A DNA stretch of 51,062 bases, from the IMG/VR virus record IMGVR_UViG_3300015192_000001, positions 1-51,062 of that record. One strand, given 5' to 3'. This document shows positions 11,897 through 35,838 of the stretch, one piece after another; position 1 is the first letter of the stretch, and every line of letters begins with the position of its first letter. The notes beneath the pieces are model-generated. The model saw nothing but the letters and a program-made list of their open reading frames with translations, ran no database searches and was not told the DNA's origin. The stretch is from a virus. Both the position numbers and the translations under genes were made by a program.

Positions 11897-13708
11897 TTAT
11901 ACCTCGCTTGGATTCATAAACGGCGGGTGGATCGCGACTGGACTAGTAATTGAGGGACCTACGCCCATGAGTTGGGCGGCGGTATCCCGCATGGGTCCTA
12001 CATGATTTCCTGGCATGGTGTGTTGGTTCTGTCCGGCGTTCCCCGGCATAGCCTTGTCAGAGCCTGCCTGTGCCTGTTGGGCTGCGGCTTGGTTACTGCC
12101 ATTCGCAATGGCATCCATCTGGCCCTGTACGGAAACGATCGCCCCGGCTGTGCCGGGTGAAAGCTTCGGGTCGGCGTTCCACTCACCGATGTAGGTCTCT
12201 TCGTCTTCTGGAACCTTGTTGATCTCTTCCATCGCGCTGCGACGAGAGAGCATGCCTGACGAGATGGCCTGGCTGAGTGAGTTGACTGTGGCGGCGAAGT
12301 CACGAGGAGTAACGGCCGTGAAGTCGATCTTGGTGAAGTAGTTGCCCTGGATGAGTTCCTTGGTGTCTGGCTCAACGATTTCCATGTTCTTGAGCGTCAG
12401 TTCGGCCCAGCGCTGGTAGAGCGTGCCCATGCGAACCTCGCGTGGGCCAAGGCGTGTGACGACAGACTGGAACCGGATGGCCATGGCATACCCGGAGGAA
12501 GTGGTGGGAACACCACCCCCGCCGAGGACCTCAGGCGGAATGCCCGTTGTGCGTCGATACTCGTCGTAGAGATGAGTCAGCAACTCGCCGTATCCGATGT
12601 TGTCCACCGGGTACTTGAGAGGCATGACGTCTTCGTCTTCCTTCGAGCCGAGCGGGAACACCCGGCCACCGCCGGGGAGGTCCCGCGGCGACAGGCCGCG
12701 GACATTGAAGGTCTTCCACTGGTCCTGGCCGTTACGGCGAACCGCTTCGGCCCAGTCGGTGATCCGAGTTGAGATCTCCTTCTGGAACATGACCGTGGGC
12801 TCTGCGTCACCGATACCGAACGGGTTCCCTGGCTCGGTGTCGCAGTTGATCGGGATATACGGGAAGTCCGGTAGCTTGGTGACTTTCTCTTCAACCTGCT
12901 GGCCGTTGCCGAGGAACAGACTGTTGACGACCTTCCCTGCAGTGTTCTTGTAGTGGAAGTCGATTAGTGGAACCCCGACGAACTGCTGACGACCAGACAG
13001 CGTCTTGTTCGGACGTGTGGCTAGTCCGAGGAAGTTCTGGTGGTCGGCGTACTGGGGGGCGTTGCCGTCCTTCTTGCGAAGGGCGTCGTACATCGTGGTA
13101 GCCCCGGTGCCATTCCAGCTGTAGTCATCACGCGCCTGCTCGGGCGAGATGAGAGAGTGGTAGGTATAGGAGCGAACACGCTTGTAACTGTCATCGGCCC
13201 ACTCGGTCCAGAGGTTCTCGATGTTGTCGATGTTCTCGGTCCAGAGCTCAGTTCCGTCGTAGCCAACCTTGAGAGCAGCTCGGCCCTTGAGGGAAAGGAC
13301 CTTAGCCATGTCCAGGTGGACCTCTTTGAGGTTCTGGCGCTGCGATTCATACTTCAGCAGTAGCTCAGTGCGTTCCGCATCGTTGCGGTCCTTCTCGTCA
13401 GCGCTCTTCGGCTCCATCTTGATGATCGGAGCTCGCATGCCCATGAGAGCAGACATGACGTTGACGGTGAACCAGACGAGGGGCACAGGCACATAGGCCT
13501 GCTTCTCACGCTTCTCGCGGAAGAAGTGGTCCCAACCATAGAGTGGGTTGTAGGCTGGGTGGTACTCGCGGTGCAGTTGGTCAACGACCTGCCGATAAGC
13601 AGAGGCATGTGGCCAGGCTCGACGCAAGTGGATCTGCAAACGCTGCAGCGGAGTGTCGAGTTCCGTCTGCGGAATGTTGAATTCAGAGCTCAATAGATGC
13701 TTTCCCAC
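11897..13708 (-). CDS. Portal protein candidate, 603 aa
   Basis: GTG start overlapping the terL 3' end by 19 nt. Size and position are typical of a portal. No motif-level proof. Confidence 0.65.
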   Translation of the reverse strand: MGKHLLSSEFNIPQTELDTPLQRLQIHLRRAWPHASAYRQVVDQLHREYHPAYNPLYGWDHFFREKREKQAYVPVPLVWFTVNVMSALMGMRAPIIKMEPKSADEKDRNDAERTELLLKYESQRQNLKEVHLDMAKVLSLKGRAALKVGYDGTELWTENIDNIENLWTEWADDSYKRVRSYTYHSLISPEQARDDYSWNGTGATTMYDALRKKDGNAPQYADHQNFLGLATRPNKTLSGRQQFVGVPLIDFHYKNTAGKVVNSLFLGNGQQVEEKVTKLPDFPYIPINCDTEPGNPFGIGDAEPTVMFQKEISTRITDWAEAVRRNGQDQWKTFNVRGLSPRDLPGGGRVFPLGSKEDEDVMPLKYPVDNIGYGELLTHLYDEYRRTTGIPPEVLGGGGVPTTSSGYAMAIRFQSVVTRLGPREVRMGTLYQRWAELTLKNMEIVEPDTKELIQGNYFTKIDFTAVTPRDFAATVNSLSQAISSGMLSRRSAMEEINKVPEDEETYIGEWNADPKLSPGTAGAIVSVQGQMDAIANGSNQAAAQQAQAGSDKAMPGNAGQNQHTMPGNHVGPMRDTAAQLMGVGPSITSPVAIHPPFMNPSEV

Positions 13709-15159
13709 TCACCGATCTCATCAGGAGTGACTGACCGCTCGGCCATGTAGGCCGCGAGCGCCATTGCCATTACCGAATCGGTGTCGATCTTTGCGTCGGC
13801 TCGCTTGTAGTCTTTAAGTTCCTGTTTCATGGCGAGGAACTCCCCGGGGATCTGGAGCTGGCCCTTGTCGAGCAGCAGCCGCAGGGTAGTGAGGATGTCG
13901 AGCTTCTTCTTGGTCTGTCCCCCGAAGTCGTAGCCTCGAGGTCGCGGGTAGAGCGTCGACATTTCGGTCTTGAACATCTTTCCGCCAAGACCAGTGGAGT
14001 CATAGACGAGAACGGCATCTGCCTTCTGCAGGGTGCCAACCTCGAACCATTCAGAGTTGTAGTACTCAAGGAGTCGCTTCATCTCGGCAATGAGTTCGGG
14101 ATGAGCGGTTCCCCGTTTGGGTTCCACAACCTCGAGCACCCTGAAGGGGCGCTTGGTCGCGTCCCAGACGCAGAAGACGGAGCGATCGCCAGCCTTGGCA
14201 ACCGCGAGGTCACATCCGATGATGTAGAAGTGCCCGTTCTCATGGAGATGGGCTGACTTCATGCTCGCCAGGAAGGACTTCTCGATTCCCGGCCGGGGGA
14301 AGAAGGCCTCGCTACCCTGGACGAACTCGCCGTACAAGACCTGTGGTATTAGATAGTCTGGTGTGCCTGCTATAAGCTTCTGGATCTGCTCTTCAGTAAC
14401 GAATGGGTTCTCGCGGATGTTTCCACGTGTTGAGTAGAAGAGCGGATCTGCGAAGAAGTTGTCGGGGTCGCCCTTCTTCCACCACTCCTCGTAGTCGGTG
14501 CCTGTGTCTACGTCCGGCGTCGTTGCCGTGCAGATCACTCCACCCGTGTCGAGGGTGCGGGGGTTGATGTGCGCCCCCATCAGGTTGAGGAAGTTCTTCT
14601 GGCGCCCAGCTTCATCAAAGGTGATGAGGAACTTGGGTGTACCCTGGACAGCCTTGGCGTTGTCGTCGGTAGTGCGGTACTCGAGGGTTACATGGGTGAC
14701 CTTTGTGCGGAAGCCTTTGTAGTCCCCGAAGGTGACCAGGTACCCGCCTTTGTCGTTCTGCTCGAATAGCGCTCCGAGTATGCAGCGCCCGCGCCCCGCG
14801 GGGTTGTTGATCTGCTCCTTGGCCTCGCTCTTGAGAATGTTGTCCACCATGTCGCGCAAGACATTGGCGAGATCAACGAGTGGGCAGAGGTTGATGATGC
14901 CGTATGGGTGAGTCCAGAAGTCATCGCCCTCAATGTAGAGGCCGTGCTTGTAGGCTGCGAAGAACAGATGGATTACAGCAAGGCATACTGTCTTGCCCCA
15001 GCGGTTTGACGCTGTGAGGTTGATGTACTTCTTGATGATGTGACCGTCCGCGTCGAAGCAGATGGCTTTTCTAAGGAACCGTTCTTGACCCGGGTGCAGT
15101 TTGATGCCCAGGATGTGGCGAGAAAACCCAACCGGGTCATAACGGTATGTCTCAAGCAG
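13690..15159 (-). CDS. terL: Terminase large subunit, 489 aa if initiated at CTG 15157..15159. The track ORF 13690..14859 is N-terminally truncated.
   Basis: The track ORF contains Walker B LITFDEAG and nuclease motifs (IIGCDLAV, VYDSTGLGG, DTDSVMA). The same frame stays open upstream to the TAG at 15160..15162 and encodes LLETYRYDPVGFSRHILGIKLHPGQERFLRKAICFD...LTASNRWGKTVCLAV, with Walker A at about 14989..15006. There is no ATG/GTG/TTG in those 100 codons. Confidence 0.85.
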   Translation of the reverse strand: MLETYRYDPVGFSRHILGIKLHPGQERFLRKAICFDADGHIIKKYINLTASNRWGKTVCLAVIHLFFAAYKHGLYIEGDDFWTHPYGIINLCPLVDLANVLRDMVDNILKSEAKEQINNPAGRGRCILGALFEQNDKGGYLVTFGDYKGFRTKVTHVTLEYRTTDDNAKAVQGTPKFLITFDEAGRQKNFLNLMGAHINPRTLDTGGVICTATTPDVDTGTDYEEWWKKGDPDNFFADPLFYSTRGNIRENPFVTEEQIQKLIAGTPDYLIPQVLYGEFVQGSEAFFPRPGIEKSFLASMKSAHLHENGHFYIIGCDLAVAKAGDRSVFCVWDATKRPFRVLEVVEPKRGTAHPELIAEMKRLLEYYNSEWFEVGTLQKADAVLVYDSTGLGGKMFKTEMSTLYPRPRGYDFGGQTKKKLDILTTLRLLLDKGQLQIPGEFLAMKQELKDYKRADAKIDTDSVMAMALAAYMAERSVTPDEIGEWESIY

Positions 15160-17841
15160 CTAAGTTTTGATCTGGATCTTCACGTCGTCGATCGACGTAA
15201 TGGTCCCGATCTTGCCTTCTGTCTCGAAGGTCCAGCCGCCGGCAGCATCTCCAACGGTTGTTTGATAGGTGTACTGCCAGACCCCGAGTGATATCTTGGT
15301 CATCGCACCGCCGCTCACGGCTCGTACGAATCCAGCGACATAGCCTCCGGTGGGGTTCTTGACATATAGCTTTGCAGTACCAACGTCAGGGTCGATAAGA
15401 CCACCGTTGGAATCTGTAAAGGTTGTCTCGATAATGATGGCGGTGCCAGCTTTGTATGCCAACTCTTGTGGACCCACAATCCTTGATCGCATGACCAAGT
15501 AGCTTTTGTTAATAGTGAGATCGTCCATCCAGCCTTTGCCTCGGATCTTCACTGTGCTGAACAGGAATTCCCTGACTTGCTGGTAGAACTGGATGTATCT
15601 CTGAATAGTGTGTGTACCGGTAAATGAGAGGCTGGCAACGAAGTTCTTCACGTAGACGATCGGCAAGCCGACCCTCTGGACGGTGATGTTCCCGATGAGG
15701 GGCAATGCAGCTGTGAATGTCCGGAAGAATTGACGGAGCCTAGAGAATGTGCCAGTGAATGACAGGACTCCAGCCATATTTCTGAAGTAGGCTTTGCCTG
15801 CAGAAAAGGCCCCAGAGAAGGACAGAGTTCCGGCGAGACTGCGAAGAATAGTGGCGGATCTAGTCCATGTACCAGTGAAGGTGAGGACGCTGGGGAAGCT
15901 CCGGAGGAACGTCCCAACGCGTGACCATGTCCCCGTGAATGAGAGCACACCAGCAAAGGCTCTTAAGAAGATCTTTATCCCGGTGTGAGTTCCCGTGAAG
16001 GACAGGACTGCGGTCTGTGTCCTCTGGAAGATGCCTACACGCGACCAAGAACCAGCGAACGAGAGGACGCCTGCCAGTGCTTGTGCGAAGGGGAAGGATG
16101 CTGGGCGTAGCGCGATTGAGAGTGCGAACCATCCTCCTGCGACATCCGTCGTTGAGGTTGCTGATCCTGTCGCTCCGGCAGGAGTAATGAGTTTGTGGTC
16201 TACCCTCATTACACGCCCGACGCTACCGAATGTCGGAACGTCGTTTGTATAGCCAGTTGGCAGGGTAAGAGTGGTTCCGTTAACGTCCGAAGCAAAGACA
16301 CCGATGTGCCAAGCATTGTCGCTGACTGTCGTAATTGACGGTGCGGTCACCGAGGTAGTCGTACCTATCGAACTCGCTGGAGTCACATCTATCGGAGTAG
16401 CGTTATCTACTCCACTATATGCCGAGACGAACGCATCGACAACACCGTTAGTTGGACCACTGAAAACGAAACTTGCGCCTTCGCTGCTGGCGATGCGGCG
16501 CAGTGTAGTGAATCGGTTGAAAACCCCGGGCGTAAAGTCAACTTCGGTCCAGCCGGTGAGGGTGGCGTGTGGAGGTGAATCGTTCGCTGTAATCGTGGCA
16601 ATTAGAACATCGCCATCGACCACTCCGGTCGGCTTGGTGACTGTGATGGTAGTAGCGCCGTTCGTAAGGTCTGTGTTCGACGAGGCCCTGAAGACGATTG
16701 CTCGCTTCTTCGTCAAGGTTCCAGCGAATGATAGTGCGGCGGTCAGGACCTTCTTCGGGTTCTTGATGATCGAACCGGCGAACGTCAGACCCCCAGTGAG
16801 GCTCCTTGCGAACGTCGCAGCGCGGGTCCAGGTTCCGGTAAACGACAGGACCCCGGCCAGGCTGCGGAAGTAGGCCTTGCCAACAGCGAAGGCTCCAGTG
16901 AAGGATAACGTGGCGGCTAGTGGTCTTAGCATTGTTGCGGCTCTTGACCATGTGCCGGTAAAGGACAGACCGCCTGTGAGTGTTCGTAGAACCGTAGCTA
17001 CTCGTGTCCAGTTGCCGATAAATGACAGTACCCCAGCTAGGACTCTAAGGAAGATACCTACCCGAGAGAAGGACCCTACAAAGGACAGTCCACCCGAAAG
17101 TGCTTGAGTGAAGGTCGATGGCCCCGCGCTTCCTGTACCAAATCGTGGTGTCGGTTGGCGATAGAAGAACCGCATCGCCTGCGGGCCAACGTATTTGTTA
17201 GCAATTCGAATGATTGGTAGGGCTGCGTTGGCCACAACTGCTGTAGCGAATACTTCAGCCGCGACGATGGCCCAGGTCGAGGTCGCCCCCGTCCAGTTCA
17301 TCGTGATCGTGCCGCCAGAGGAAGCCTTGCGTTGCGAGCCGCCCGACTCTCCGGCGATGGCGAGGGCGTGGTGGAGGGTGCCGGTTTCGGTAAGGATGGT
17401 GCCCGCGCCCTCGGCCCAGGAGTCCACCACGATGTTGCCGGTGGTCGTGCCGGTGACATCGACGGTCGGTTCGCCCGATGCTCCGCTGGCGGTGACGCCA
17501 GTGCCGAACGGGGTGGTCTGATCGACTCCGGTGAACGACTGACCGCCGCCGATGGCCGAACCAACCGTCCCGACGAAGGTGACGGTGATGGTGTTCGCGC
17601 CGGTGGCGGGGTTCTTCAGTCCCCACAGGGACGAGTTATCGAACGCGGCGCCGGTGACCTCGGCCAGCCGGGTCAGCGCCACGCCGTTGTAGGTCACGGT
17701 CGATACGCGGTTCCCGGAGGCACCGTCGTAGGAACCGACATCGACGACCAGGGCGAGGTTCGACCCGGTGCAGGTGTGTGACCAGGAAAGCGTCGCGCCG
17801 CTGCCAGTGGCGCTGGTCTTTACGTCGAGAGCGATGGCCAC
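15160..17841 (-). CDS. 893-aa fibre or receptor-binding-like structural protein. It has a duplicated module, each a globular domain followed by an array of 20-aa repeats.
   Basis: GTG start. Two paralogous about 190-aa domains, each followed by L-x-G-x-L-S-F-x-G-x-W-S/T-R-x-x-x-x-x-R repeats. Ig-like C-terminus. Ends on a TAG in frame with terL. Confidence 0.75.
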   Translation of the reverse strand: MAIALDVKTSATGSGATLSWSHTCTGSNLALVVDVGSYDGASGNRVSTVTYNGVALTRLAEVTGAAFDNSSLWGLKNPATGANTITVTFVGTVGSAIGGGQSFTGVDQTTPFGTGVTASGASGEPTVDVTGTTTGNIVVDSWAEGAGTILTETGTLHHALAIAGESGGSQRKASSGGTITMNWTGATSTWAIVAAEVFATAVVANAALPIIRIANKYVGPQAMRFFYRQPTPRFGTGSAGPSTFTQALSGGLSFVGSFSRVGIFLRVLAGVLSFIGNWTRVATVLRTLTGGLSFTGTWSRAATMLRPLAATLSFTGAFAVGKAYFRSLAGVLSFTGTWTRAATFARSLTGGLTFAGSIIKNPKKVLTAALSFAGTLTKKRAIVFRASSNTDLTNGATTITVTKPTGVVDGDVLIATITANDSPPHATLTGWTEVDFTPGVFNRFTTLRRIASSEGASFVFSGPTNGVVDAFVSAYSGVDNATPIDVTPASSIGTTTSVTAPSITTVSDNAWHIGVFASDVNGTTLTLPTGYTNDVPTFGSVGRVMRVDHKLITPAGATGSATSTTDVAGGWFALSIALRPASFPFAQALAGVLSFAGSWSRVGIFQRTQTAVLSFTGTHTGIKIFLRAFAGVLSFTGTWSRVGTFLRSFPSVLTFTGTWTRSATILRSLAGTLSFSGAFSAGKAYFRNMAGVLSFTGTFSRLRQFFRTFTAALPLIGNITVQRVGLPIVYVKNFVASLSFTGTHTIQRYIQFYQQVREFLFSTVKIRGKGWMDDLTINKSYLVMRSRIVGPQELAYKAGTAIIIETTFTDSNGGLIDPDVGTAKLYVKNPTGGYVAGFVRAVSGGAMTKISLGVWQYTYQTTVGDAAGGWTFETEGKIGTITSIDDVKIQIKT
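15592..16077 (-). repeat. Coding tandem repeat array 2, about 7-8 units of 60 bp (20 aa), with unit order parallel to array 1
   Basis: Residues 589-750: LAGVLSFAGSWSRVGIFQRT / QTAVLSFTGTHTGIKIFLRA / FAGVLSFTGTWSRVGTFLRS / FPSVLTFTGTWTRSATILRS / LAGTLSFSGAFSAGKAYFRN / MAGVLSFTGTFSRLRQFFRT ... Confidence 0.85.
16702..17100 (-). repeat. Coding tandem repeat array 1, about 6.5 units of 60 bp (20 aa)
   Basis: Residues 248-380: LSGGLSFVGSFSRVGIFLRV / LAGVLSFIGNWTRVATVLRT / LTGGLSFTGTWSRAATMLRP / LAATLSFTGAFAVGKAYFRS / LAGVLSFTGTWTRAATFARS ... Confidence 0.85.
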
Positions 17842-17842
17842 C

Positions 17843-18202
17843 TTAGGCCGTCGCTACATCGAGTCCGATGTTCACCTTACGCGAGAGGTTGGCGGTCACG
17901 CGGAAGAACGCGGGCTGGACGCCAGAGGTCGAGTAACTGACCGACGGCGGGACTAGTGTGCCCGCACGGTTGAGGATGTTGCCGTGCCATGTGCCCCCGC
18001 CAGCCATCAGCGACCAGGGGCCTGTCGTGGACGCTCCGCCCTCGATGGTCATTTGGATGGTGAGGGTCGCGTCCGCGAGGTCGGCTTGGTTCATGATCGC
18101 TGAGGTGATGTAGCGGGTGTCTGGGGCGAACGCACCACTCGCGACGGCGGCAGTGGCGACTAGACCTGGACCGCGTGGCGCTTGGGGAACAACGACGGCC
18201 AT
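17843..18202 (-). CDS. Hypothetical structural protein, 119 aa
   Basis: ORF tightly packed between neighbours (TAGATG upstream junction; its TAA is 1 nt from the next GTG). Confidence 0.65.
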   Translation of the reverse strand: MAVVVPQAPRGPGLVATAAVASGAFAPDTRYITSAIMNQADLADATLTIQMTIEGGASTTGPWSLMAGGGTWHGNILNRAGTLVPPSVSYSTSGVQPAFFRVTANLSRKVNIGLDVATA

Positions 18203-18781
18203 CTAGTTCAGTCCGTAGACGGACAGTGAGAGCAGCTGGATCGCGTTCGAGACGCTCGAGGTTCCACAGACTGCCGAGATGTTCACGTAGTTCGTGATTG
18301 AAATGTCCACTGTTGCGATGGTGCCCGGGGTCGCCCCGCCACCGAAGACTGATCCCTGTATCGTGAATGGTGCACCGGCCAGAAGGCCAAGGCCGCGCAT
18401 CGTCGAGTTGGCCCCTGCGCCCCCAAGAGTTTCCATGAAGGCATCGAGTTCCAGTTCAAAAAGCAGGTTGGCAATGCCAGATCCGGTCGTAAGTGCTGGG
18501 CTCTGTCCGATGATCGGTCCTGTGATCGCAGCTGCGCCGCCCAGTCGGGCAACGAGTTGGAAAGTTGGCGTAACAGTAGTTGAGATAATCCCACGAGCCA
18601 TGATCCGAATGCCTTTAGACAACGAGCCAGAGGGCAGGAAGAAGAACGGGGGGAGAATGGGCTGTGGGCCCATCCCCGCCACATCGTTGATCAATGCTTC
18701 GGCAGTGAATGTGTTCTTCGCCGTAGCAGGTTTGACGCTCTGGTAAATCAGCTCGCAGTTGGTGCCAGTGAGAAAGCTCAT
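18203..18781 (-). CDS. Hypothetical structural protein, 192 aa
   Basis: ORF in the fibre-gene block. Gly/Ala/Thr-rich beta-type composition. Confidence 0.65.
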   Translation of the reverse strand: MSFLTGTNCELIYQSVKPATAKNTFTAEALINDVAGMGPQPILPPFFFLPSGSLSKGIRIMARGIISTTVTPTFQLVARLGGAAAITGPIIGQSPALTTGSGIANLLFELELDAFMETLGGAGANSTMRGLGLLAGAPFTIQGSVFGGGATPGTIATVDISITNYVNISAVCGTSSVSNAIQLLSLSVYGLN

Positions 18782-24108: not shown

Positions 24109-24530
24109 TGACGGTCCGCAACCTCAACAGCGAGAACGACGAGGTACTCACACTCCCCAACGACCTCAATGGCCTTGAGCGCATCTGCCGCAACTACCAC
24201 GCACGGCAGACAGTCGCCACCTACGAAATGACGCCAATCTTCACACCCGGTGATGGATGGCTCTGCGAATCCTGCGAAATCGAAACGTGGGTCCCCTACG
24301 GAGTCACACACACACATGGCCACAGAGCCATCTCCGTCCCCCCCACCGCCACAACTACTTTTCAGTACAAGTCGCACTCACTCGCGCGCTTCGGAGACAC
24401 CACAGCCTGCATTTCATGCGGCGCTGATGACAGATCCGACCTGTTCGAGTTCAAGCTCGATTGCGACACCCGCGCGGTTCGCATCTACCGATCGACCAAT
24501 GGCTCAGGACTCCGACGGGGTGTGGCGTGA
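24108..24530 (+). CDS. Hypothetical protein, 140 aa, with CxxC pairs
   Basis: TAATG coupling with GGAGGTGAAG as SD. Corresponds to the C-terminal part of track ORF 23778..24530. Confidence 0.65.
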   Translation: MTVRNLNSENDEVLTLPNDLNGLERICRNYHARQTVATYEMTPIFTPGDGWLCESCEIETWVPYGVTHTHGHRAISVPPTATTTFQYKSHSLARFGDTTACISCGADDRSDLFEFKLDCDTRAVRIYRSTNGSGLRRGVA

Positions 24531-24697
24531 TCGGCGCCGTTGACCCCACGGTGCGTGGATCACGGGTTCCGGCCGACTCCACCCCCGCACGGCTGCGCCC
24601 AGAGGGCGCACCGGCCGCAAGCGGCCTGCCGCACGTGGGCCCCGGAGCTCGGTCGGCGTCAGGAGAAGTAAGCAAGAAAGTGGAAGGAAACACTGAA

Positions 24698-26251
24698 ATG
24701 CCGCAAACAATCTCGTTTTGGTCGCGGGATGCCAAATGGTCTGGCCTTAGCAACTTCGCGCCAGTGACCATCGAGCACAACGGCACCATCTACCGCAGCC
24801 TTGAGCACGCCTACCTCGCATCACGCGTGGCAATCGAGCACGCTGCAGACATCGCAGCAGCGCCTACCGCACGCGATGCGAAGATCATGATGCGCGACCT
24901 ACCGCGCAACCCGCAGCCGCCGAACAAGATCACCACCATGAAAACACTGCTGCTCAAGAAATTCGCACTGGAGCCGTACCGCACGCTCCTGCTCAGCACA
25001 GGCGATACATACCTGTCCCACTACGCGCCATGGGACAGCTTCTGGGGCACAGGCAAAGATGGCAAAGGCGAGAACCGCCTCGGCCACATGCTCATGAACG
25101 TCAGGAGCGAGATCAATCCCGAAACAACCAAACCCACCGCATCAACAGATGCCACAACAAGTATTGCACTCGTAGGCTCGCGTGCGTTCGGAAAGGACCC
25201 GGCCCTGCTCAACGGCAAGGCAGCATGGACCCTCCTGACACGCATCTTCACAGGCATCGAGAAGCGGTACAGCCTCGTGAACATCGTCTCAGGTGGCGCC
25301 AACGGCGTCGACAAGATGGGCGTGTTCATGGCCAAGGATCGTGGACACACCACCACCGTCTTCCCAGCCGACTGGGACCGCCTCGGCAAGAGCGCTGGCT
25401 ACGCTCGCAACGTCACCATCGTCGAGAACTCAGACATGGTCGTAGCCATCATGGACCCCGGCTCCAAGGGCACCAGGCACACCGTCCACCTCGCTATGGA
25501 CGCACGGCTGCCCCTGCGGATCTTCAGCGCCATCGATGGCAGCGAGTACAAGTCGTGCCCCTGCGATGACAAGATCACGCACGACCGTATCAAGGCCGAG
25601 CAAACCTACCAGACAGTATCCATCGCAGGCACAGACGTCCTGATGGAAGGCGATGACGCCCGCATCCACCGCTACGACAAGCCGTACATCGATCCCGAGA
25701 CTGGTGACTTCATCGAGCCAGATGACAGCCTGCTCGGCATCGAGGTCGATGGCAACTGCCAGACCTGCGGCCGTGAGATGCCAGAGGGTGAGTGCGGCAA
25801 GTGCGCCACCGAGGTCTACGGCTTCCTCCCGGGGGACAACGCCCCAGTGGAAACGCCACAGGACCACCCAGACGTCACTGGCCACAACTACTTCATCAAG
25901 CCAGCCAAGGTGGAGTGGCAGCCAAACCCGTTCTCACGCGGCACGTTCTACAAGATCGTGAACGGTCACCGCATGTACACCGTAGACCAGGTGACCAAGG
26001 CTCGCTTCACCAAAGAGGACCTTGAGGCACAAACGATCCGCCTCAACGCTATCCCAGCAGGCGCCTTCAGCTTCGATGTCATCGCAAAGAACGCCATCAC
26101 GCGCAAGTTCCCAGTGATGCCGTTCGCACACGCAAGCCCGTTCGCCAAGGCGCAGCGCAACACGATCGTCAATCCGCCGCTTCCCCAGCTCCCGGCCACC
26201 ATGGTCGAGATGAGCAAGAAGATCGCTGACAACGCTCGGCTTTACCGCTAA
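24698..26251 (+). CDS. Three-part fusion protein, 517 aa: NADAR (YbiA-like), SLOG/DUF2493-like, and an unknown C-terminal domain with a zinc ribbon
   Basis: ATG after GGAAGGA. NADAR motifs: LSNFAPVTIEHNGTIYRSLEHAY and FWGTGKDGKGENRLGHMLM. SLOG/DUF2493 motifs: SGGANGVDKMG, FPADWDRLGKSAGYARN and GSKGTRHTV. CTD contains CQTCG...CGKC. Confidence 0.75.
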   Translation: MPQTISFWSRDAKWSGLSNFAPVTIEHNGTIYRSLEHAYLASRVAIEHAADIAAAPTARDAKIMMRDLPRNPQPPNKITTMKTLLLKKFALEPYRTLLLSTGDTYLSHYAPWDSFWGTGKDGKGENRLGHMLMNVRSEINPETTKPTASTDATTSIALVGSRAFGKDPALLNGKAAWTLLTRIFTGIEKRYSLVNIVSGGANGVDKMGVFMAKDRGHTTTVFPADWDRLGKSAGYARNVTIVENSDMVVAIMDPGSKGTRHTVHLAMDARLPLRIFSAIDGSEYKSCPCDDKITHDRIKAEQTYQTVSIAGTDVLMEGDDARIHRYDKPYIDPETGDFIEPDDSLLGIEVDGNCQTCGREMPEGECGKCATEVYGFLPGDNAPVETPQDHPDVTGHNYFIKPAKVEWQPNPFSRGTFYKIVNGHRMYTVDQVTKARFTKEDLEAQTIRLNAIPAGAFSFDVIAKNAITRKFPVMPFAHASPFAKAQRNTIVNPPLPQLPATMVEMSKKIADNARLYR

Positions 26252-26340
26252 TGAAGGTAGAAACCCTAGCAATCAGCACCTTCACAAGCGCGCTTCTCTG
26301 GATTGCCATGATCGCAATCCTTCGCACACTTGCGCAATAA
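26251..26340 (+). CDS. Small hydrophobic peptide, 29 aa (below the track cutoff)
   Basis: TAATG coupling to the NADAR-SLOG gene. Sequence MKVETLAISTFTSALLWIAMIAILRTLAQ*. Followed by an ACCGCC...GGCGGT hairpin. Confidence 0.4.
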   Translation: MKVETLAISTFTSALLWIAMIAILRTLAQ

Positions 26341-26379
26341 CAGGACCGCCCTGTCTCAGGCGGTAGAAAGAGGCCCAGC

Positions 26380-26760
26380 ATGTCCACCATCGCAAAGTTG
26401 ACCCTCATCGGTCACCTTGGTAACAACGCAGAGCTCCGCAACGTCGGCCCCGCAGACAACCTCCGCGCAGTCCTGAACTTCAGCGTCGCGACCCAGAACC
26501 GCAAGGACCAGCCCACGCTCTGGACACGGTGCTCCCTCTGGGGCAACCGCGCCGAATCCCTCGCGCAGTACATGACGAAGGGCACGCTCGTCATGGTCGA
26601 TGCCATCCCGCTGCCCCCGAAGGTCTTCCGTCGTGCCGACGGGACCTACGACACTTCCCTCGAGGCCATCGCGAACGACGTCGTACTGCTCAGCAGCCAG
26701 AACACCATCGAGCCCAGTGCTGCGGCAGTTGAGGTGACGGAGGTCGCGATCCCGTTCTAA
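26380..26760 (+). CDS. ssb: Single-stranded DNA-binding protein, 126 aa
   Basis: OB-fold SSB pattern (KLTLIGHLGNNAELR..., LWTRCSLWGNRAE, KGTLVMVDA) and a C-terminal ...EVAIPF tip. Confidence 0.8.
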   Translation: MSTIAKLTLIGHLGNNAELRNVGPADNLRAVLNFSVATQNRKDQPTLWTRCSLWGNRAESLAQYMTKGTLVMVDAIPLPPKVFRRADGTYDTSLEAIANDVVLLSSQNTIEPSAAAVEVTEVAIPF

Positions 26761-27300
26761 CCAAACTGCCCGGACCAAGATGAGCCACCGGGCACCCGCT
26801 TCGTGGAAGCGGGAAGTCCTACGTCGGGTGGGCCTCCTTCCCCTATCTGCCGCAGGACCTCCCGCTTCTACGTGAGGTGAACACATGCGATGACCTGAAT
26901 AGCGATCCAGTACAACGCTTGACACAGAATTCCTAAGACCCCACAGGGGTCTGCCGCCCGGTCACAGGCAAGCGAAGCCCCCGGTAATGTCGGGTTCGGG
27001 CCTCTCCTGCGTCCTACTCCAGAGCCGTTAGAACAGCCGGTATCCCCATAGGGACGAGGTAAAACTCGCTATCCGGCAAAGGTGTGTCCGCGACCGTAAT
27101 GGACGGACGAGCCGCTGACCATATGGGCTCATCAACCAAGTGGTCTCCCCGCTGCTCGGATTCAGCAGCAGTAATGAGCTCCGACTTGCAGGGCTCGCCC
27201 AACTCCCGGGTTGGGCTCGTGGTTTCAGAAGCAGATTGTACTGCTGGTGAAGCCACGAGCCTAGCCCAGGCGCCACCGGCACGCCATCGCCGGACCAACT

Positions 27301-27335
27301 TTGGACATTCGCAATATCCAACATTTGACATTCGC
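27301..27335 (+). repeat. Direct repeat TT(G/T)GACATTCGCA x2, 22 bp apart, upstream of gene 27372
   Basis: ttggacattcgcaatatccaacatttgacattcgcac. The second copy contains TTGACA. Confidence 0.6.
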
Positions 27336-27371
27336 ACAAACTTCGTCCAAGATTCAGGAGAACAGGAAATC

Positions 27372-27752: not shown

Positions 27753-27888
27753 CCGCGACCGCATGCGCCAGAGAGCCTCGTTCGGACGTGAGATTCCATG
27801 GTCAACAACGTCTGCGGGCAATTAGGGGCCTCACTCATGGTCACAGCCCCTGTCTCTGGCGCAGCCGATCACGGCTAGGAGAACATCA

Positions 27889-28155
27889 ATGACCTACGAC
27901 CCACTCACCGCAACAGGTTTCCAAGACTTCGCAACGAAGTACTACCAAGAACAAGACCACAGCTTCTCAAGGTCAGCGTACGACCTGTCACTCGCTAGTC
28001 GGATGTGCTCAGCGGCCGGATGGCACCCCGACGACTGCTATGTCTACGAAGACGACAAGTTCATCACCGTCGTGCAGATCGACAAGCAAGAAGTCCGCAT
28101 GCAGGCCAAAGACGTCCACAAGACACGACTTGACGACTTAGGAGTTGCACCATGA
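27889..28155 (+). CDS. Hypothetical protein, 88 aa
   Basis: ATG after TAGGAGAAC. Compact ORF. Confidence 0.65.
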   Translation: MTYDPLTATGFQDFATKYYQEQDHSFSRSAYDLSLASRMCSAAGWHPDDCYVYEDDKFITVVQIDKQEVRMQAKDVHKTRLDDLGVAP

Positions 28156-28394
28156 CCAGAACCGAGGTCCTGCTCAGGGATCGCAAACACGGCATCGCCT
28201 TCCTCAAGAACGACCAAGGAAAGATCATCCTCGCCTGCGCTTCCTACGGAAAGTCAAAGCTAATCGCTATCCCACTCAGCCAGGCAGAAGGACTAAGTCT
28301 GCTGAGTGCAGCACAGGCCACGTTCGTTCCCCCGCCCCACTACGAAAACTGGCTCGAAACGCTCATTCGGCTCATGAAAGGAGACAGGCAGTGA
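28152..28394 (+). CDS. Hypothetical protein, 80 aa
   Basis: ATGA coupling upstream and GTGA coupling downstream. Confidence 0.65.
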   Translation: MTRTEVLLRDRKHGIAFLKNDQGKIILACASYGKSKLIAIPLSQAEGLSLLSAAQATFVPPPHYENWLETLIRLMKGDRQ

Positions 28395-29491
28395 CACAAC
28401 TCGGCACCGATCCGGAGTTCTTCATCTTCGACAAGGATGACAAGCCGGTCCCCGCACACACCCTCGGATTCCCAACCAAAGAAAACAAGCTCAAATCAGA
28501 AGACATCGTTGGCGTCTTCGAGCAATACGCCACTCTCTTCCGAGACGGCTACGCGATCGAAGCCAACGTCACATACGCACCATCCTGCCGAGCCATGCTG
28601 GCAACACACATCCGATCAGCCGTACGCGCCATGCGTGCCAAGGTCGGACCGAACTATCACATCGGCACAGAAGCCGCCGTTCGCATCCGGCTTCGTACCC
28701 AGATGCGTGGAGCACCAGACGATGTCTCACACTTCGGATGCGAGCCATCATTCGACGGCTATCGCAATGGTGCAGCCAAGGTAGTCGACATCGACGCCTT
28801 CACCCACAGCTATCGCTATGCCGGAGGACACATGCACTTCGGCACTTTCAACAACAAGTCAGCACTCTACCGTCAAGCCGCAAAAGACGACAACTCCGAA
28901 GCATTGCAAGACCCGACCAACTTCCCACTCATGGCCAAGATCTTCGACCTACTCGTCGGACTGCCTCTCACCATCATCTATGACGACAGCAAGCAGTTTC
29001 TCCGTCGTCGTCACTACGGTCAGGCTGGCGAGTACCGACCACAGATCTACCCAGGCGAACGAGTGGGCTTCGAGTACCGCACACCCCCCCCGCAGCTATG
29101 GAACCACCACGCCATCGCCGGACTGTTCTTTGGCGTAGGCAAGTGGATCGTGAACAACTACGCCACCCTAGCCGAAGACTGGAACCCCAACATCGAGCAG
29201 GATCTGCAGCGTGCCATCAACCATGGCACCCGCGGACAGAACCTCCTGCAGAGCGTTCCAGGGTTCTATACCCCAGAGACAATCCTGTCTCTCAAGGGTG
29301 TCAAGGAAATCAAATCGCTCTTCCTTCCGGACTACACCGGCAGCACCGATTCGGGATGGATCGAGTTCGCCGAGCTCTGGGGCCTAAAGAAGACCATCCC
29401 GGAGCCCAACTTCAAGCGAAGCTACACCTCAGCACCATACGCACCCACCGCACGTCCCAAGTTCAGCTTCATTGCGGCCAAAGCCGCATGA
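28391..29491 (+). CDS. Carboxylate-amine (COOH-NH2) ligase, 366 aa, phage phiEco32-like type 2, in the GCS/GS-like superfamily
   Basis: GTG start (GTGA overlap, GGAGACAGG as SD). Motifs: LGTDPEFFIF, FGCEPSFDG, AGGHMHFG, GQAGEYRPQ and GFEYRTPP. The first about 80 aa of the track ORF overlap two other genes. Confidence 0.7.
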   Translation: MTQLGTDPEFFIFDKDDKPVPAHTLGFPTKENKLKSEDIVGVFEQYATLFRDGYAIEANVTYAPSCRAMLATHIRSAVRAMRAKVGPNYHIGTEAAVRIRLRTQMRGAPDDVSHFGCEPSFDGYRNGAAKVVDIDAFTHSYRYAGGHMHFGTFNNKSALYRQAAKDDNSEALQDPTNFPLMAKIFDLLVGLPLTIIYDDSKQFLRRRHYGQAGEYRPQIYPGERVGFEYRTPPPQLWNHHAIAGLFFGVGKWIVNNYATLAEDWNPNIEQDLQRAINHGTRGQNLLQSVPGFYTPETILSLKGVKEIKSLFLPDYTGSTDSGWIEFAELWGLKKTIPEPNFKRSYTSAPYAPTARPKFSFIAAKAA

Positions 29492-29646
29492 AACACTGGG
29501 GACTGATCCAATTCGAGATCTTCAACATCAGCTTCGGTCTTCTGTTCTACGGACACGGACAGCGACCGAAGGGCACGCCAGTCAGGAAGATCTGGATGTT
29601 CCATCCATTCTTCTATCGCTACCACCACTACTGCGACAACAGCTAG
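29488..29646 (+). CDS. Small aromatic-rich protein, 52 aa (below the track cutoff as its own gene)
   Basis: ATGA coupling to the ligase stop. Sequence MKHWGLIQFEIFNISFGLLFYGHGQRPKGTPVRKIWMFHPFFYRYHHYCDNS*. Confidence 0.45.
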   Translation: MKHWGLIQFEIFNISFGLLFYGHGQRPKGTPVRKIWMFHPFFYRYHHYCDNS

Positions 29647-29659
29647 AGAGGAAAAGAAC

Positions 29660-30557: not shown

Positions 30558-32225
30558 ATGGCTCTGCATTTCGAGCACCAACCTCCCACCATCATGACCC
30601 TCAAAAAGCCCAAAAAGACCAGCAAAAAGCGTACTTGGGCCATTCCGATCATGTTCGGCAGCACACCCATGCTGCGTCGCTGTCCCAACTGCGACAGAAC
30701 CAGATCCACCACCCACGTCGTCGGATTCTGCGCTGAATGCGAAAGCTGCGTTGCCTGCGGCGCTGCGCCATGGATAGATCGCGACACACGACTCTGCGCC
30801 AACTGCGTATGCCAAACATGTGGCGGCACTAATGCGCCCATGGGTCGTGATGAGGATGGCGACACTGCATGCGGCACCTGTCGCAAGGTCGTCATCTGCA
30901 CGATCTGCTCACGCAACTTTGCTAACTGCCTGAGGAAAGGCGAACAAACACCAACCCAGTGCTACGAGTGCGCCGGACGATCCAAGATGCGCTGCTACTT
31001 CTGCAACGGCAAAGCCAGCAAGATCATGGGAAACGATTCACGAGCCAACCGCAAGTACTACCTCGTCTGCGCCATCTGTCACAACACCTTCTGCTGCTGG
31101 CGCAAAGACTGCATCCCAACCAAACAGTGCGGCGGATGCACCGACAGGCAGCACGAGCAAGAGCAAGCAGACACCAATCCCACACCTCGTTGGAACAACC
31201 CGTTCGGCAACTGGGTCAACAATCCGATCAAGTTCTGGGATGCCACACCAATCACTAGCCGCAAGATCAATCGATCACCCCGAATGCTCGGCATCGAAAT
31301 CGAATGCGCAGGCGCCACAAACGTCACACTCAAAACCAAAGCAGAACTGTACCGAGTGCTCAAAAAGTGGGGCGCCAGCATGGTGTACGACGGCTCACTG
31401 CGCAGCGGCGGATTCGAGATCACCACATCCCCCGCTGCAGGCGACGTCTTCCTCAAGCAGATCGACGAGATCACCGACGCCCTGCGAGCCGCAGGCGCAT
31501 TTGTCGACGAGCAATGCGGTCTCCACGTACACATCGACGCACGAGACCACCACTACGCCGACATCCGCAAGCTCGTGCGCTACTACGCCTTCCTCGAGCC
31601 AGCACTCATCCGTACCCAGCCATTCGATCGCATCCTTCGCCCCAACCCGAACAACGGCAAGTACTACTGCCTACCATGCGGAGAGAAGTACCTAACAGGC
31701 CTCGGTGACACAAGCGCTGAGACCGTCTCCAAGATGTACACCGACATCACTCGAGAGAAACTTCTGAGCAACATCTATGGCACAGACACATGGCGCCCAC
31801 CCAGGAGGGAGCACTACACCCAGGCCAAGTACCACGCATTCAACTTCCACTCATGGTTCTACAAGAACCGACGCACAGTCGAATCCAGGATACACGCAGG
31901 CACAATCGTCCCCAGAAAGATCAAAGACTGGGGCATGCTCTGGGCCAGCATCGTCGATGAGGCCTACCGGATGACAGACAAGGTCATCCCGGTCCCCGGA
32001 CCAGTCGACGACAGCATCGCGCAGCTCAAGCGCGTAGCACCAACCCCACGTATCAAGACCTACATCCAGACACGACTGGATACCTTCCGCAAGAAGTACG
32101 ACGACTACTACGCCACGCAACCTGCAACTTCCATACCCAACAACCCATTCTTCGAAGAAACATTCGAAGCAGAAATTCAAGACCCACCTGAAGACCACGA
32201 CAACTACGAAGAAGAGGACTTTTAA
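30558..32225 (+). CDS. Amidoligase_2-family (GS-like) ligase, 555 aa, with a long N-terminal multi-CxxC zinc-ribbon array
   Basis: ATG after GAAGGAG. 26 Cys, including 11 CxxC pairs, in residues 42-194. Ligase motifs: MLGIEIECAG, YDGSLRSGGFEITTSP, CGLHVHIDA. Acidic tail ...EDHDNYEEEDF. Confidence 0.7.
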   Translation: MALHFEHQPPTIMTLKKPKKTSKKRTWAIPIMFGSTPMLRRCPNCDRTRSTTHVVGFCAECESCVACGAAPWIDRDTRLCANCVCQTCGGTNAPMGRDEDGDTACGTCRKVVICTICSRNFANCLRKGEQTPTQCYECAGRSKMRCYFCNGKASKIMGNDSRANRKYYLVCAICHNTFCCWRKDCIPTKQCGGCTDRQHEQEQADTNPTPRWNNPFGNWVNNPIKFWDATPITSRKINRSPRMLGIEIECAGATNVTLKTKAELYRVLKKWGASMVYDGSLRSGGFEITTSPAAGDVFLKQIDEITDALRAAGAFVDEQCGLHVHIDARDHHYADIRKLVRYYAFLEPALIRTQPFDRILRPNPNNGKYYCLPCGEKYLTGLGDTSAETVSKMYTDITREKLLSNIYGTDTWRPPRREHYTQAKYHAFNFHSWFYKNRRTVESRIHAGTIVPRKIKDWGMLWASIVDEAYRMTDKVIPVPGPVDDSIAQLKRVAPTPRIKTYIQTRLDTFRKKYDDYYATQPATSIPNNPFFEETFEAEIQDPPEDHDNYEEEDF

Positions 32226-32227
32226 AC

Positions 32228-33535
32228 ATGTGCGGACAATTCGGCGTGCAATGGCGAGAGCGACCAGGCGGAGCCAACATCCCGCTCTTCGCCGTACTTG
32301 AGGTCCTCATGGACGACCGCGGTGGTCACTCATGGGGATTCTGGGCCGACGGGGTAGTCCGCAAGGGACTGGGCCGCATCACAGAATCGATCCCAGCCAG
32401 AACATTGGGCGGAGTCAAAACACTCATCGCCCACACCCGCCTCGCCACCACAGGCAAGATCTGCGAGAGCAACTCCCACCCTTTTGAGATGGGAAAGATC
32501 GTCGGCACACACAACGGAATGATCTACAACCACGAGGATCTCGCACGGCACTACGACCGCAAGTTCGAAGTCGATTCCATGCACATCTTCGCCCATCTTG
32601 ACGAAGGCCAAGACCTTCAGGAGCTGCGAGGCTATGGTTCAGCAGTCTGGCTACACACCGACGACCTGAACACCATCAACTTCGTACGCTGGAACAGCGG
32701 AGACCTAGCCATCGCCGAGATCTACAGCAAAGACAAGAAGCTGCTGGGCACTGCATGGGCCTCAACTCCAGAAGCACTCGTCCCAGCCATCGAAACCACA
32801 GGACTCGTCGATCGCCTCATCAAGGTCGATGAAGAGCGCCATTACTACACCAAAAACGCCGAAGTCTTCGCAGAGAACGAAAAGAGCATGAAGTTCGGCT
32901 TCGGTTCAAAGGGCGCATCCACCTTCAGCTCTCACGCAGACAAGATCGGTGGCGAATGGGTCAAAAACGTCTGGACTGCCTATGAAAATGGAGTCCTGCC
33001 AGCCCCCAAGCCGGTGCAGATCTACTCGGGCTTCAGACACAAGCAGAAGCCAACACCCATCGAAGTCCGAGACACACTCGCAAAGCAGGGCCTCAAAGCG
33101 ATCCAGCGGCCGGGTGGCGTCACCATCAAGAACAAATCCCAGTTCGAAGAATGGCCCAAAGACACCCTCACACAAAGTCGCAAGTGCATGAACTGCGATC
33201 TTGCCAACATGAAGACAGTCCGGCACCCCGAGATCGGCGTAGCGCTCTGCTACGACTGCACCAAAGTCACCGATTCCTACGATGACGCTGGACTCCCAAT
33301 CATCGTGCCCAACACCACAGAACACGGCATCGCCCTAGTCGCCAACCTACAAGATGTCGTCACCCTCCAAGATGCCATCAAATACGAAGGCATCGACGAA
33401 GACACACTAGACCCAGACGAAGTCGCCCTACTGGAGTGGATGCGCGAAGGACGCCGTCCCGAAAGCGGCACGCTCTACATCCCAAACAACGAAGAGATCG
33501 AGTTCCCACCCCGAGATTGGGTCGGCATGATCTAG
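32228..33535 (+). CDS. Class II (Ntn-type) glutamine amidotransferase-like protein, 435 aa, with a C-terminal zinc ribbon
   Basis: Met-Cys start (MCGQFG). Motifs: IAHTRLATTG, NSHPF, GTHNGMIYNHEDL. C-terminus contains CMNCD...CYDC. Confidence 0.7.
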   Translation: MCGQFGVQWRERPGGANIPLFAVLEVLMDDRGGHSWGFWADGVVRKGLGRITESIPARTLGGVKTLIAHTRLATTGKICESNSHPFEMGKIVGTHNGMIYNHEDLARHYDRKFEVDSMHIFAHLDEGQDLQELRGYGSAVWLHTDDLNTINFVRWNSGDLAIAEIYSKDKKLLGTAWASTPEALVPAIETTGLVDRLIKVDEERHYYTKNAEVFAENEKSMKFGFGSKGASTFSSHADKIGGEWVKNVWTAYENGVLPAPKPVQIYSGFRHKQKPTPIEVRDTLAKQGLKAIQRPGGVTIKNKSQFEEWPKDTLTQSRKCMNCDLANMKTVRHPEIGVALCYDCTKVTDSYDDAGLPIIVPNTTEHGIALVANLQDVVTLQDAIKYEGIDEDTLDPDEVALLEWMREGRRPESGTLYIPNNEEIEFPPRDWVGMI

Positions 33536-34337: not shown

Positions 34338-35086
34338 AGACGCTCGTCAAGCGGCGGGTGCTCGTCGCCGTAGCCAAGGTAGCGGCGACTCGCCCCGCGG
34401 TTGAGATCCAGCCATATGACGGACCGGCCGCCAACTACATCCAGTTGACGGGCGTCCCCCTCACCATGGCCATTCTCAACGATGAGTACAAGGAGCTCAT
34501 GTCGCCAGTCATGTGCAAGGACTACATCACCGATGCCTTCTGGTCCGAACACAGCAAGAAGCCAATTTCCATCTACGGCTTCAACTGGACATCGGGAACA
34601 ATAGACCCCAGCAAGGTCGTCTATCGCATCGGACTCAAGTTCGGCAACGACGACGATGCCCAAAAGACAACCAACGTCATCGACCTCATCAACCTTTGGG
34701 ACAAAGCACTTGGCTTCAAACCAAGCCAGCTCCTAAAGACCAACGACATCAAGAACCGTGTCCTTGAAGTCGATCGCGCATGGACCGAGCAGCCAATCCG
34801 CATCAGCCTTCTCACCCTCATGCTTCGCATGGGCACCGCCTACACCCCCGGAGAGGGGCTCGAGGCATTCCTCAACAACACCAAGACCAACATAAACACC
34901 GGGAAGAAAGGCCTACGCGCACTCATCCACAGTGGTGACGGCATGCATGTCGCCCAGGCCCAGAACCTCATCCTGAAGATCTACAAGGAGGGAAAGTTCC
35001 CCGCGCAGACCTACGCACAATACAAAAGCCACAGCGAAATCCACAACCGAAGCGGCATCGTCTCAATGGCAGGGAGCAGTAAGTGA
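34334..35086 (+). CDS. Hypothetical protein, 250 aa, lying between the Pup-like peptide gene and the ATP-grasp gene
   Basis: GTG start. Its SD AAGGGAGG is encoded by the KGG codons of the upstream peptide. No motif recognised. Confidence 0.65.
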   Translation: MKTLVKRRVLVAVAKVAATRPAVEIQPYDGPAANYIQLTGVPLTMAILNDEYKELMSPVMCKDYITDAFWSEHSKKPISIYGFNWTSGTIDPSKVVYRIGLKFGNDDDAQKTTNVIDLINLWDKALGFKPSQLLKTNDIKNRVLEVDRAWTEQPIRISLLTLMLRMGTAYTPGEGLEAFLNNTKTNINTGKKGLRALIHSGDGMHVAQAQNLILKIYKEGKFPAQTYAQYKSHSEIHNRSGIVSMAGSSK

Positions 35087-35838
35087 TCGACCTCGTCGTA
35101 GCCTCAGCAGCCAAGACCACCGGACGCTACCTCAGAACAGCCCTCTCTACACTCAATGTAGGGGTCGGTGCAAGCACCAAGCGTGTGAGCTACGGCGTAC
35201 CGCTGCATGTTCCTCATGGCTCCTCGGCCCTCAACGCCAACGCAGGTCGGCTCGACAAGTTCGAGCAGATGAAGAAGCTTAACTCTGCGGGAATCACCGT
35301 GCCCCTGTTCTGGCTTCCAGGACAGACGCCGTCTAAGTTCCCGCTTCTCGCGAGAAAGAGGCATCACAAGGGAGGTACCGACATCATGCCCGTCTTCATG
35401 GCAGAGGAGATGTCATGGCGCGTCCTCGCAGGTGCTGAATTCTTCGTGGAGTACATCCCGTGGCAGGCGGAGTATCGCACATGGATATTCCGCTCAGCTC
35501 ACCTGGGGACCGATCGCAAAGTCCTGACGAACCCGAGTCAGTACAAGAAGATCGGATGCAACGCAAAGAACGGGTTCACGTTCCAGACCGTCCACCAAGA
35601 CGATGTCCCAAGGGCAGCCGTCGAAGCCGCCATGAGGTCAATCCACACACTTGACCTTGACTTCGGCGCAGTAGACATTCTTCTTGGCAAGGACAGTCGA
35701 TACTACGTGCTTGAGGTAAACACGGCCCCCGGGGTCGAGAGCGCAGAGCGCAGGCTACTCCGCTCCCTCGCACAGAAGATCGCCAACTGGAACGCCAACC
35801 CGGTCGAACGTCGCAAAACCTACACACCGACCATCTAA
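35083..35838 (+). CDS. ATP-grasp (RimK-like) amide ligase, 251 aa
   Basis: Motifs: DKFEQMKKLNSAGITVP, RKRHHKGGTD, EYRTWIF and LDLDFGAVDILLGKDSRYYVLEVNTAPG. Confidence 0.7.
   Translation: MIDLVVASAAKTTGRYLRTALSTLNVGVGASTKRVSYGVPLHVPHGSSALNANAGRLDKFEQMKKLNSAGITVPLFWLPGQTPSKFPLLARKRHHKGGTDIMPVFMAEEMSWRVLAGAEFFVEYIPWQAEYRTWIFRSAHLGTDRKVLTNPSQYKKIGCNAKNGFTFQTVHQDDVPRAAVEAAMRSIHTLDLDFGAVDILLGKDSRYYVLEVNTAPGVESAERRLLRSLAQKIANWNANPVERRKTYTPTI

Follow-up and report, generated by a model that had tools for sequence, protein, structure and literature searches.

How is an essential phage gene translated when its reading frame offers no canonical start codon ahead of a conserved N-terminus? The question is raised by terL, the large terminase gene of a soil phage, the virus recorded in IMG/VR as IMGVR_UViG_3300015192_000001, of which we analysed positions 1 to 51,062; this whole stretch of 51,062 nucleotides (nt) is referred to here as the window. 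An original prediction, made from the letters alone, noted that the first ATG, GTG or TTG of the terL frame is a TTG at 14859 and that the frame stays open for 100 codons upstream of it, and both the list of open reading frames (ORFs) and a scan of the frame bear this out. It also held that the frame begins directly behind the TAG (15160..15162) that ends an 893-amino-acid (aa) gene, in the same phase and with CTG as the next codon. The junction sequence confirms this: on the minus strand it reads ...ATC AAA ACT TAG CTG CTT GAG ACA TAC CGT TAT GAC..., with one TAG between the two frames. From comparison with related phages, we put at about 75% the probability that this CTG is the initiation codon of terL, decoded by initiator tRNA as formylmethionine (fMet) and reached by translational coupling, that is, termination-reinitiation. 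The elements of the junction and of the terL frame are as follows.

15162..15160, minus strand: TAG stop of the 893-aa ORF, read from the window sequence
15159..15157, minus strand: CTG, the proposed terL initiation codon, 0 nt from the upstream TAG
13690..15159, minus strand: full terL coding sequence, 489 codons plus the TGA at 13692..13690
14860..15159, minus strand: terL codons 1-100, free of ATG, GTG and TTG, encoding N-terminal helices, a beta strand, the Walker A P-loop and the next helix
14857..14859, minus strand: TTG, first canonical start of the terL frame (codon 101), rejected as the real start
13690..14859, minus strand: ORF counted from that TTG, 389 aa in the ORF list
14850..14848, minus strand: ATG (codon 104) at which the public gene call P0003 begins (MVDNIL..., 386 aa, P-loop missing), rejected as the start

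Across the 34 genes of the window, ATG, GTG and TTG account for 3.6% of in-frame codons. Because a 100-codon stretch without any of them has a chance probability of about 0.026 at the codon usage of the window, the run is by itself unremarkable; what is notable is that a conserved N-terminus has no canonical start. No other real gene of the window has a leader of this kind.

The terL N-terminus and its homologues

By every feature that could be tested, the window gene is a T4-type large terminase. The phrog_2 profile ('terminase large subunit') matches residues 6-475 (E=8e-19), Pfam Terminase_6C matches residues 314-469 at 24.8 bits, above its curated cut-off of 22.6, and Terminase_6N scores just below its own cut-off (21.4 bits against 22). 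A family-profile search of the PDB reached the TerL nuclease-domain chains 5m1f/5m1q and 5tge (P74-26) and no ATPase domain, so the latter was checked by structure prediction and Foldseek. The AlphaFold model draws on 28 family members and reaches a mean pLDDT of 85, with residues 1-70 at 89-96, and around the P-loop it places a strand (45-50), a loop and a helix (56-69). As a whole, the model retrieves T4 gp17 (E=4e-15) as well as the Sf6 gp2, HK97 and D6E terminases; its N-terminal half matches the P74-26 ATPase domain with a TM(target) of 0.67-0.70, and its nuclease part matches the nuclease domains of RB49, P74-26 and SPP1. The predicted protein has an N-terminal ASCE ATPase domain with Walker A, and a C-terminal RNase-H-like nuclease domain was likewise found. 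The gene downstream of terL is the portal gene: in relatives, a gene of 590-600 aa carries PF05133 SPP1_portal, and the 603-aa ORF in the window aligns with the N-terminus of the portal in the related locus L007.

The stretch that lacks a canonical start encodes the beginning of this protein. The TerL-type N-terminal sequence said to lie upstream of the TTG, LHPGQERFLRKAI, is present in frame, as is the Walker A motif SNRWGKT; the latter occupies codons 51-57 (15009..14989), close to the approximate position 14989..15006 first given. Six residues are invariant in the 28-sequence alignment (F12, G18, Q25, N52, R53 and K56). Codons 2-100 have a dN/dS of 0.07-0.18 in the five of six relatives for which the ratio could be computed (against L011, dS was saturated), indistinguishable from that of codons 101-489. 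To judge from this conservation, the first 100 codons are translated TerL sequence under purifying selection.

A search of 5.8 billion proteins returned 38 close members of this TerL family, all from soil, groundwater and similar metagenomes, one of which (P0026) is a contig-end fragment; a metagenome scan yielded five loci. Full-length homologues measure 489-498 aa and are 60-78% identical, the closest of them starting M/V-L-E-x-Y-R-Y-D where the window reads L-L-E-T-Y-R-Y-D. The window CTG aligns to the column in which P0001, P0002, P0004, P0005, P0009, P0021 and P0024 have their ATG or GTG start, and it is the sole near-cognate codon among terL codons 1-11, ahead of the invariant F12. In several relatives (L007/L008, L009, L010 and L002) the junction is TAGTG, with a GTG start that shares its G with the upstream TAG. 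Set against the L007 junction, ACT TAG TG, the window differs by one extra C (TAG-C-TG), which leaves both frames intact, brings them into the same phase and turns GTG into CTG.

Start junctions across the TerL family

The original prediction had suggested comparing the junction in related phages; this comparison revealed tight linkage of stop and start, and near-cognate codons in seven other lineages. Junction DNA was read in 14 distinct relatives, and a fifteenth, P0004, was placed by gene coordinates alone. In all 14, terL starts at -14 to +9 nt relative to the stop of the preceding gene (in P0004, at -1), and the gene upstream ranges from 79 to about 1000 aa across relatives and is not always homologous. 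Seven relatives have no canonical start at the conserved N-terminus which, with the window, makes eight of about 35 informative members.

L006 (P0012): GCG TAATT, with ATT overlapping TAA; first canonical start 103 codons downstream
L011 (P0006): TAA ATC CTA GAA.. (I-L-E-Q-Y-R-Y-D), with ATC right after TAA; GTG 9 codons downstream
L015 (P0032): CTGA, with CTG overlapping the upstream TGA; GTG 12 codons downstream
L016/L017 (P0035): CTGA; ATG 26 codons downstream
L019/L020 (P0038): CTGA; first canonical start at least 36 codons downstream, GTG at codon 69 of the open frame
L014 (P0025): CTG 11 nt before the upstream stop; invariant residues lie ahead of the first canonical start
L018 (P0030): CTG 5 nt before the upstream stop; canonical start past F12, with G18 and Q25 kept

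Gene-finder calls are truncated in all seven; that for L019/L020, for example, starts later, at MESDQW.... Five of them (L006, L014, L016, L018 and L019) are like the window in having a near-cognate codon at the start column and no canonical alternative that would preserve the conserved N-terminus. The junctions of L016 and L019 recur in L017 and L020, respectively, in 100% identical stretches from independent samples with the same CTGA, which argues against sequencing error. Additionally, L015, L016 and L019 have a homologous upstream-gene end, D[VI]IDGE[VI]LN*, written AAC-TGA. Because they share CTGA while their TerLs are only 53-65% identical, the CTGA state appears to be old, viable and kept over long divergence.

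On a neighbour-joining tree of TerL, the eight non-canonical cases are scattered among canonical sisters, and the window CTG, the L006 ATT and the L011 ATC each occur in one lineage only, again with canonical sisters. In the loci that we fetched, the genes flanking terL have no such leader, with the exception of the L019 portal frame, and the trait therefore seems largely confined to terL. In every non-canonical case terL is otherwise undamaged. Taken together, these points argue against error or decay as a general explanation.

Proposed reinitiation at CTG and its alternatives

Many genes of the window are preceded by GGAG/AGGA Shine-Dalgarno sequences that pair with the anti-Shine-Dalgarno at -5 to -11 kcal/mol. 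At the terL CTG this pairing amounts to 0 to -1.0 kcal/mol; among the 26 candidate starts of the scan it is the weakest with any pairing at all, the plus-strand candidates at 23778 and 35864 having scored 0. Free 30S subunits are expected to initiate very poorly at a near-cognate codon that lacks a ribosome-binding site. Because the CTG lacks a Shine-Dalgarno sequence and directly follows the TAG, it would most likely be used by reinitiation and not by de novo 30S binding.

Translation of the 893-aa ORF would deliver ribosomes to the terL start, and those terminating at UAG would restart on the adjacent CUG. Initiator tRNA would decode the CTG at 15159..15157 as fMet, giving a product M-LETYRYDPVGF... 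that is colinear with the homologues. The A/U-rich AUCAAAACUUAG before the CTG may help, or may compensate for the missing Shine-Dalgarno sequence. With a weak codon, TerL could also be made in smaller amounts than the structural proteins, as would suit a catalytic packaging enzyme, and low expression may be the selective reason for the codon. A more far-reaching version, about which we are doubtful, is that across these soil phages terL translation may depend wholly on termination of the preceding gene, its start codon being nearly neutral or tuned downward by selection. In this view, terL flips repeatedly between ATG/GTG/TTG and CTG/ATT/ATC, sometimes without a Shine-Dalgarno sequence.

The original prediction had offered three explanations for the junction. 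CTG initiation by termination-reinitiation is the one that gained from the comparison, through the alignment of the CTG with the start column of homologues, the tight junctions and the recurrence of near-cognate codons. Occasional readthrough of the TAG to give a fusion protein fared badly, as the frame relation is not conserved (TAGTG at -1, CTGA at -4, TAA plus 3 nt, TAA plus 9 nt), and an unrecognised recoding event is not needed.

Several observations weigh against reinitiation at the CTG. The nearest relatives carry GTG, and the window contig with its protein comes from a single sample; taken by itself, the window genome might owe its CTG to a recent mutation or to one wrong base in the assembly. 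No relatives were found in GenBank phages by blastn and tblastn, nor in IMG/VR or GTDB genomes by a scan with the TerL profile, and the latter two scans gave neither a host assignment nor a prophage copy. In L011 and L015, use of the canonical GTG 9-12 codons downstream would keep most of the conserved residues. The near-cognate identity of the codons is weak evidence alone: an NTGA overlap allows only C as a non-canonical base, and every third-position change of ATG gives a near-cognate codon. Juxtaposed UAAAUG is rare in E. coli and strongly dependent on a Shine-Dalgarno sequence (PMC3592434), which the terL junction lacks. Finally, a hairpin predicted across the window junction, pairing AAAACUUAGCUG with CGGUUGGGUUUU, is not significant (z = -1.3), and nothing comparable was found in relatives.

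Two lines of reasoning were set aside. A form of coupling by RNA unfolding was dropped since the hairpin is neither significant nor conserved. Enrichment of near-cognate codons at the junctions (CTG, ATT, ATC and ATA make up a background of 6.7% of codons) did not serve as primary evidence: under a one-step mutation model the statistical argument is weak, since an NTGA overlap has CTGA as its sole non-canonical form.

Two alternatives would make the missing start a property of this contig. The first, an assembly or sequencing error or a minor variant, would mean that the C was added or altered by artefact in a genome that truly reads TAGTG or TAG ATG. We consider this unlikely: a single inserted C does separate the window from the TAGTG of its closest relatives, in a contig and protein known from one sample, but that C lies outside any homopolymer and the contig closes on itself by a 127-nt exact overlap, which suggests a well-covered assembly. 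Moreover, a canonical start is also missing from this junction in seven further contigs, which come from different samples and assemblers, and two of these seven junctions were reproduced identically in independent samples. It is also rather improbable that the genome is defective, with a start recently lost and terL unexpressed in a dead or helper-dependent phage or a prophage remnant. The nearest relatives do not show the CTG state, and the presence of an integrase makes a decaying prophage conceivable; against this, terL is intact over 489 codons and the late genes are uninterrupted over the whole 51-kb genome. Across 8 of about 35 lineages it is always the start codon that is affected, never a frameshift or stop within terL, and CTGA is conserved among TerLs that are 53-65% identical.

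The remaining alternatives would have TerL made from some other point in the frame. Low-level readthrough of the TAG, with TerL as a C-terminal extension of the 893-aa protein that stays fused or is released by proteolysis, draws on the shared frame and the single TAG, and L011 and L001 are also in frame. Ten of the 14 relative junctions, however, are out of frame (L007, L009, L010, L002, L006, L015, L016, L018, L019 and L014, with overlaps of -1, -4, -8 and -14). The upstream gene differs among relatives (79 aa to about 1000 aa), homologous TerLs begin at the same column with ATG or GTG, and the only tRNA in the window, a tRNA-His, is no suppressor. By the arrangement of these junctions a readthrough fusion is excluded as the mechanism of the family, and for the window it is very unlikely. 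There is even less to recommend an N-terminally truncated TerL that starts at TTG 14859 or at ATG 14850 as in the public call. These are the first canonical starts, but a protein begun there would be without Walker A, the six invariant residues and the strand and helix with which the ATPase core begins; the original prediction had rightly warned that a TTG-started TerL loses its ATP-binding loop, as the motif position, the AlphaFold model and the Foldseek matches agree. Codons 2-100 are under purifying selection, and no full-length homologue begins at either position. Reassignment of TAG to an amino acid, as in an amber-recoded phage, would allow terL to be read from an upstream GTG such as the one at 15183..15181, in frame and 7 codons upstream of the TAG. 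This is refuted by stop-codon usage, TAG being the commonest stop (14 of the 34 window genes), and its probability is negligible. There is no suppressor tRNA (only the tRNA-His), a sense TAG would make one gene of the 893-aa ORF and terL, the homologues are not extended at the N-terminus by residues matching KIQIKT, and terL, the other long ORFs and the conserved genes contain no internal TAG.

Genome context and comparison with known systems

terL stands in a chain of closely abutting late genes, whose other elements near the junction are these.

15160..17841, minus strand: 893-aa ORF, tail- or minor-tail-like, with a GTG start (ORF list)
18200..18205, minus strand: juxtaposed TAG/ATG junction between the 192-aa and 119-aa genes (...AACTAG ATGGCC), Shine-Dalgarno -3.2 kcal/mol
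17839..17845, minus strand: TAA-G-GTG junction between the 119-aa gene and the 893-aa ORF (...CCTAAG GTGGCC), Shine-Dalgarno -3.0 kcal/mol
13690..13693, minus strand: TTGA overlap at the terL-portal junction, the portal start probably being the TTG at 13693..13691, over the terL stop

Both junctions upstream of the one between the 893-aa ORF and terL are poor in Shine-Dalgarno pairing, and the one at 18200..18205 has the same geometry as at terL but a canonical start. Downstream, the portal ORF is listed from a GTG at 13708, a start that adds five residues unmatched in the L007 portal; the TTG is probably the true start and would form another -4 coupled junction. In L019 (4396-4614), 63 open codons precede the first canonical start of the portal frame, which leaves a gap of 220 nt behind terL; the portal gene of this phage may be another that starts at a non-canonical codon. 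An HNH endonuclease gene lies between terL and portal in L016 (4445-5029) and L017 (2967-3551), and is absent there in the window and the other loci.

The label 'fibre-like' given to the 893-aa ORF is plausible and has been weakly tested, by a match of residues 10-202 to PHROG 553 'minor tail protein' (E=5e-9) and by internal repeats at residues ~245-380 and ~585-745. Its C-terminal 100 aa are homologous to the gene just upstream of terL in L006, L007, L010, L001 and L014. In L007/L008 the counterpart of the last ~100 residues (15163-15460), with 53% identity, is a separate gene of 103 aa (L007 5690-6001), which TAATG joins to a preceding 649-aa gene. Because the C-terminus of the 893-aa protein matches this free-standing gene, the domain just upstream of terL appears to be fused in some relatives and separate in others. 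No recognisable small terminase gene (terS) was found upstream of terL in the window, where the tail-like gene abuts it; in more distant relatives (of the loci L007, L009, L011, L015, L016 and L018) there is a small upstream ORF of 79-123 aa that could be terS.

The window ends (1-127 and 50936-51062) carry an exact 127-nt direct repeat, the mark of an assembly that closes into a circle (k=127 overlap), and the window is probably a complete phage genome of 50,935 bp. A temperate lifestyle is suggested by the genes at 43825-47275 on the minus strand, which encode a tyrosine integrase, a DnaB-type helicase and a Toprim/zinc-ribbon primase. On the plus strand, 24461-35838 holds a cluster of genes of the peptide/amide-bond ligase type, and the single tRNA gene lies beyond it.

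24461..26251, plus strand: NADAR plus SLOG/DprA-like protein
28145..29491, plus strand: phiEco32-like COOH-NH2 ligase
30558..32225, plus strand: Amidoligase_2
32228..33535, plus strand: GATase_6
35083..35838, plus strand: RimK-like ATP-grasp protein
36507-36578, plus strand: tRNA-His (GTG anticodon)

The consequences for annotation are direct. Public calls for the window terL and its seven relatives begin 9 to ~100 codons late, and several lose the Walker A loop; phage phylogenies and predictions of the packaging mode use TerL as a standard marker, and such truncated calls spread into databases. If reinitiation at CTG is correct, synthesis of an essential phage enzyme would begin at a codon that has ~1% of the activity of AUG in E. 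coli and lacks a ribosome-binding site, nearly all TerL would be synthesized by ribosomes handed over from the upstream gene, and the ratio of terminase to structural protein would be fixed. With about eight natural replicates of CTG, ATT and ATC at one junction, the family also offers a test bed for the stringency of start-codon choice in reinitiation, which a 2025 review of translational coupling lists as unresolved (PMC12548453). Were terL to prove wholly coupled, it would be a natural, evolutionarily replicated case of start-codon-tolerant reinitiation in bacteria and would point to a hidden class of essential phage genes that gene finders systematically truncate.

As a protein, the window TerL resembles the T4-type large terminases (T4 gp17, Sf6 gp2, HK97, D6E and P74-26) in its ATPase and RNase-H-like nuclease domains, its Walker A and the portal gene immediately downstream. 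It differs from the solved TerLs in sequence, with 11-15% identity, and in having a tail-like gene upstream in place of a recognisable terS.

The codons at issue, CUG, AUU, AUC and AUA, form a near-cognate class that initiates at ~0.1-3% of the AUG level in E. coli (bioRxiv 10.1101/063800) and provides 0.004-0.024% of the starts annotated in genomes of model bacteria (PMC5499595). A close parallel to terL as proposed here is E. coli infC, which encodes IF3 and is likewise an essential gene with a near-cognate start a few nt from an upstream stop. Its AUU lies 3 nt after the thrS stop (UAA GGU AUU), and reinitiation and de novo initiation contribute about equally (PMC3592434). Part of infC expression comes from reinitiation and the weak codon sets a low level (PMC3592434; 10.1101/063800); pcnB also starts with AUU. 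Unlike terL, infC has a Shine-Dalgarno sequence, and its AUU is conserved and serves IF3 autoregulation, whereas terL has CUG, no Shine-Dalgarno sequence and a spacing of 0, and flips between canonical and near-cognate starts among relatives. Gene VII of the filamentous phages f1 and IKe, as summarized in a later review, has an inherently defective site that works only via coupling to gene V (Ivey-Hoyle and Steege 1989, cited in PMC12548453). Going by that summary it is, like terL, a phage gene without a usable Shine-Dalgarno sequence whose start lies next to a termination site; it differs in starting with AUG, and its dependence on upstream translation was shown for f1, whereas we infer it for terL.

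Overlapping stop-start pairs such as AUGA, UAAUG and UGAUG reinitiate in bacteria and archaea (PMC10666635; PMC12548453). The TerL family has the same arrangements, at -4 (CTGA), at -1 (TAGTG and TAATT) and at 0 or a few nt. The textbook pairs differ in having canonical starts, and the CTGA and TAATT variants are not normally annotated. Our literature search found no terminase described with a CTG, ATT or ATC start and no report of a phage gene family with recurrent CTG, ATT or ATC at a stop-start junction; one study of reinitiation at non-canonical codons (PMC4648390) concerns a eukaryotic oocyte system and is not applicable. The mechanism proposed for terL is itself of a known kind, and what is unusual is its replicated and largely terL-specific recurrence.

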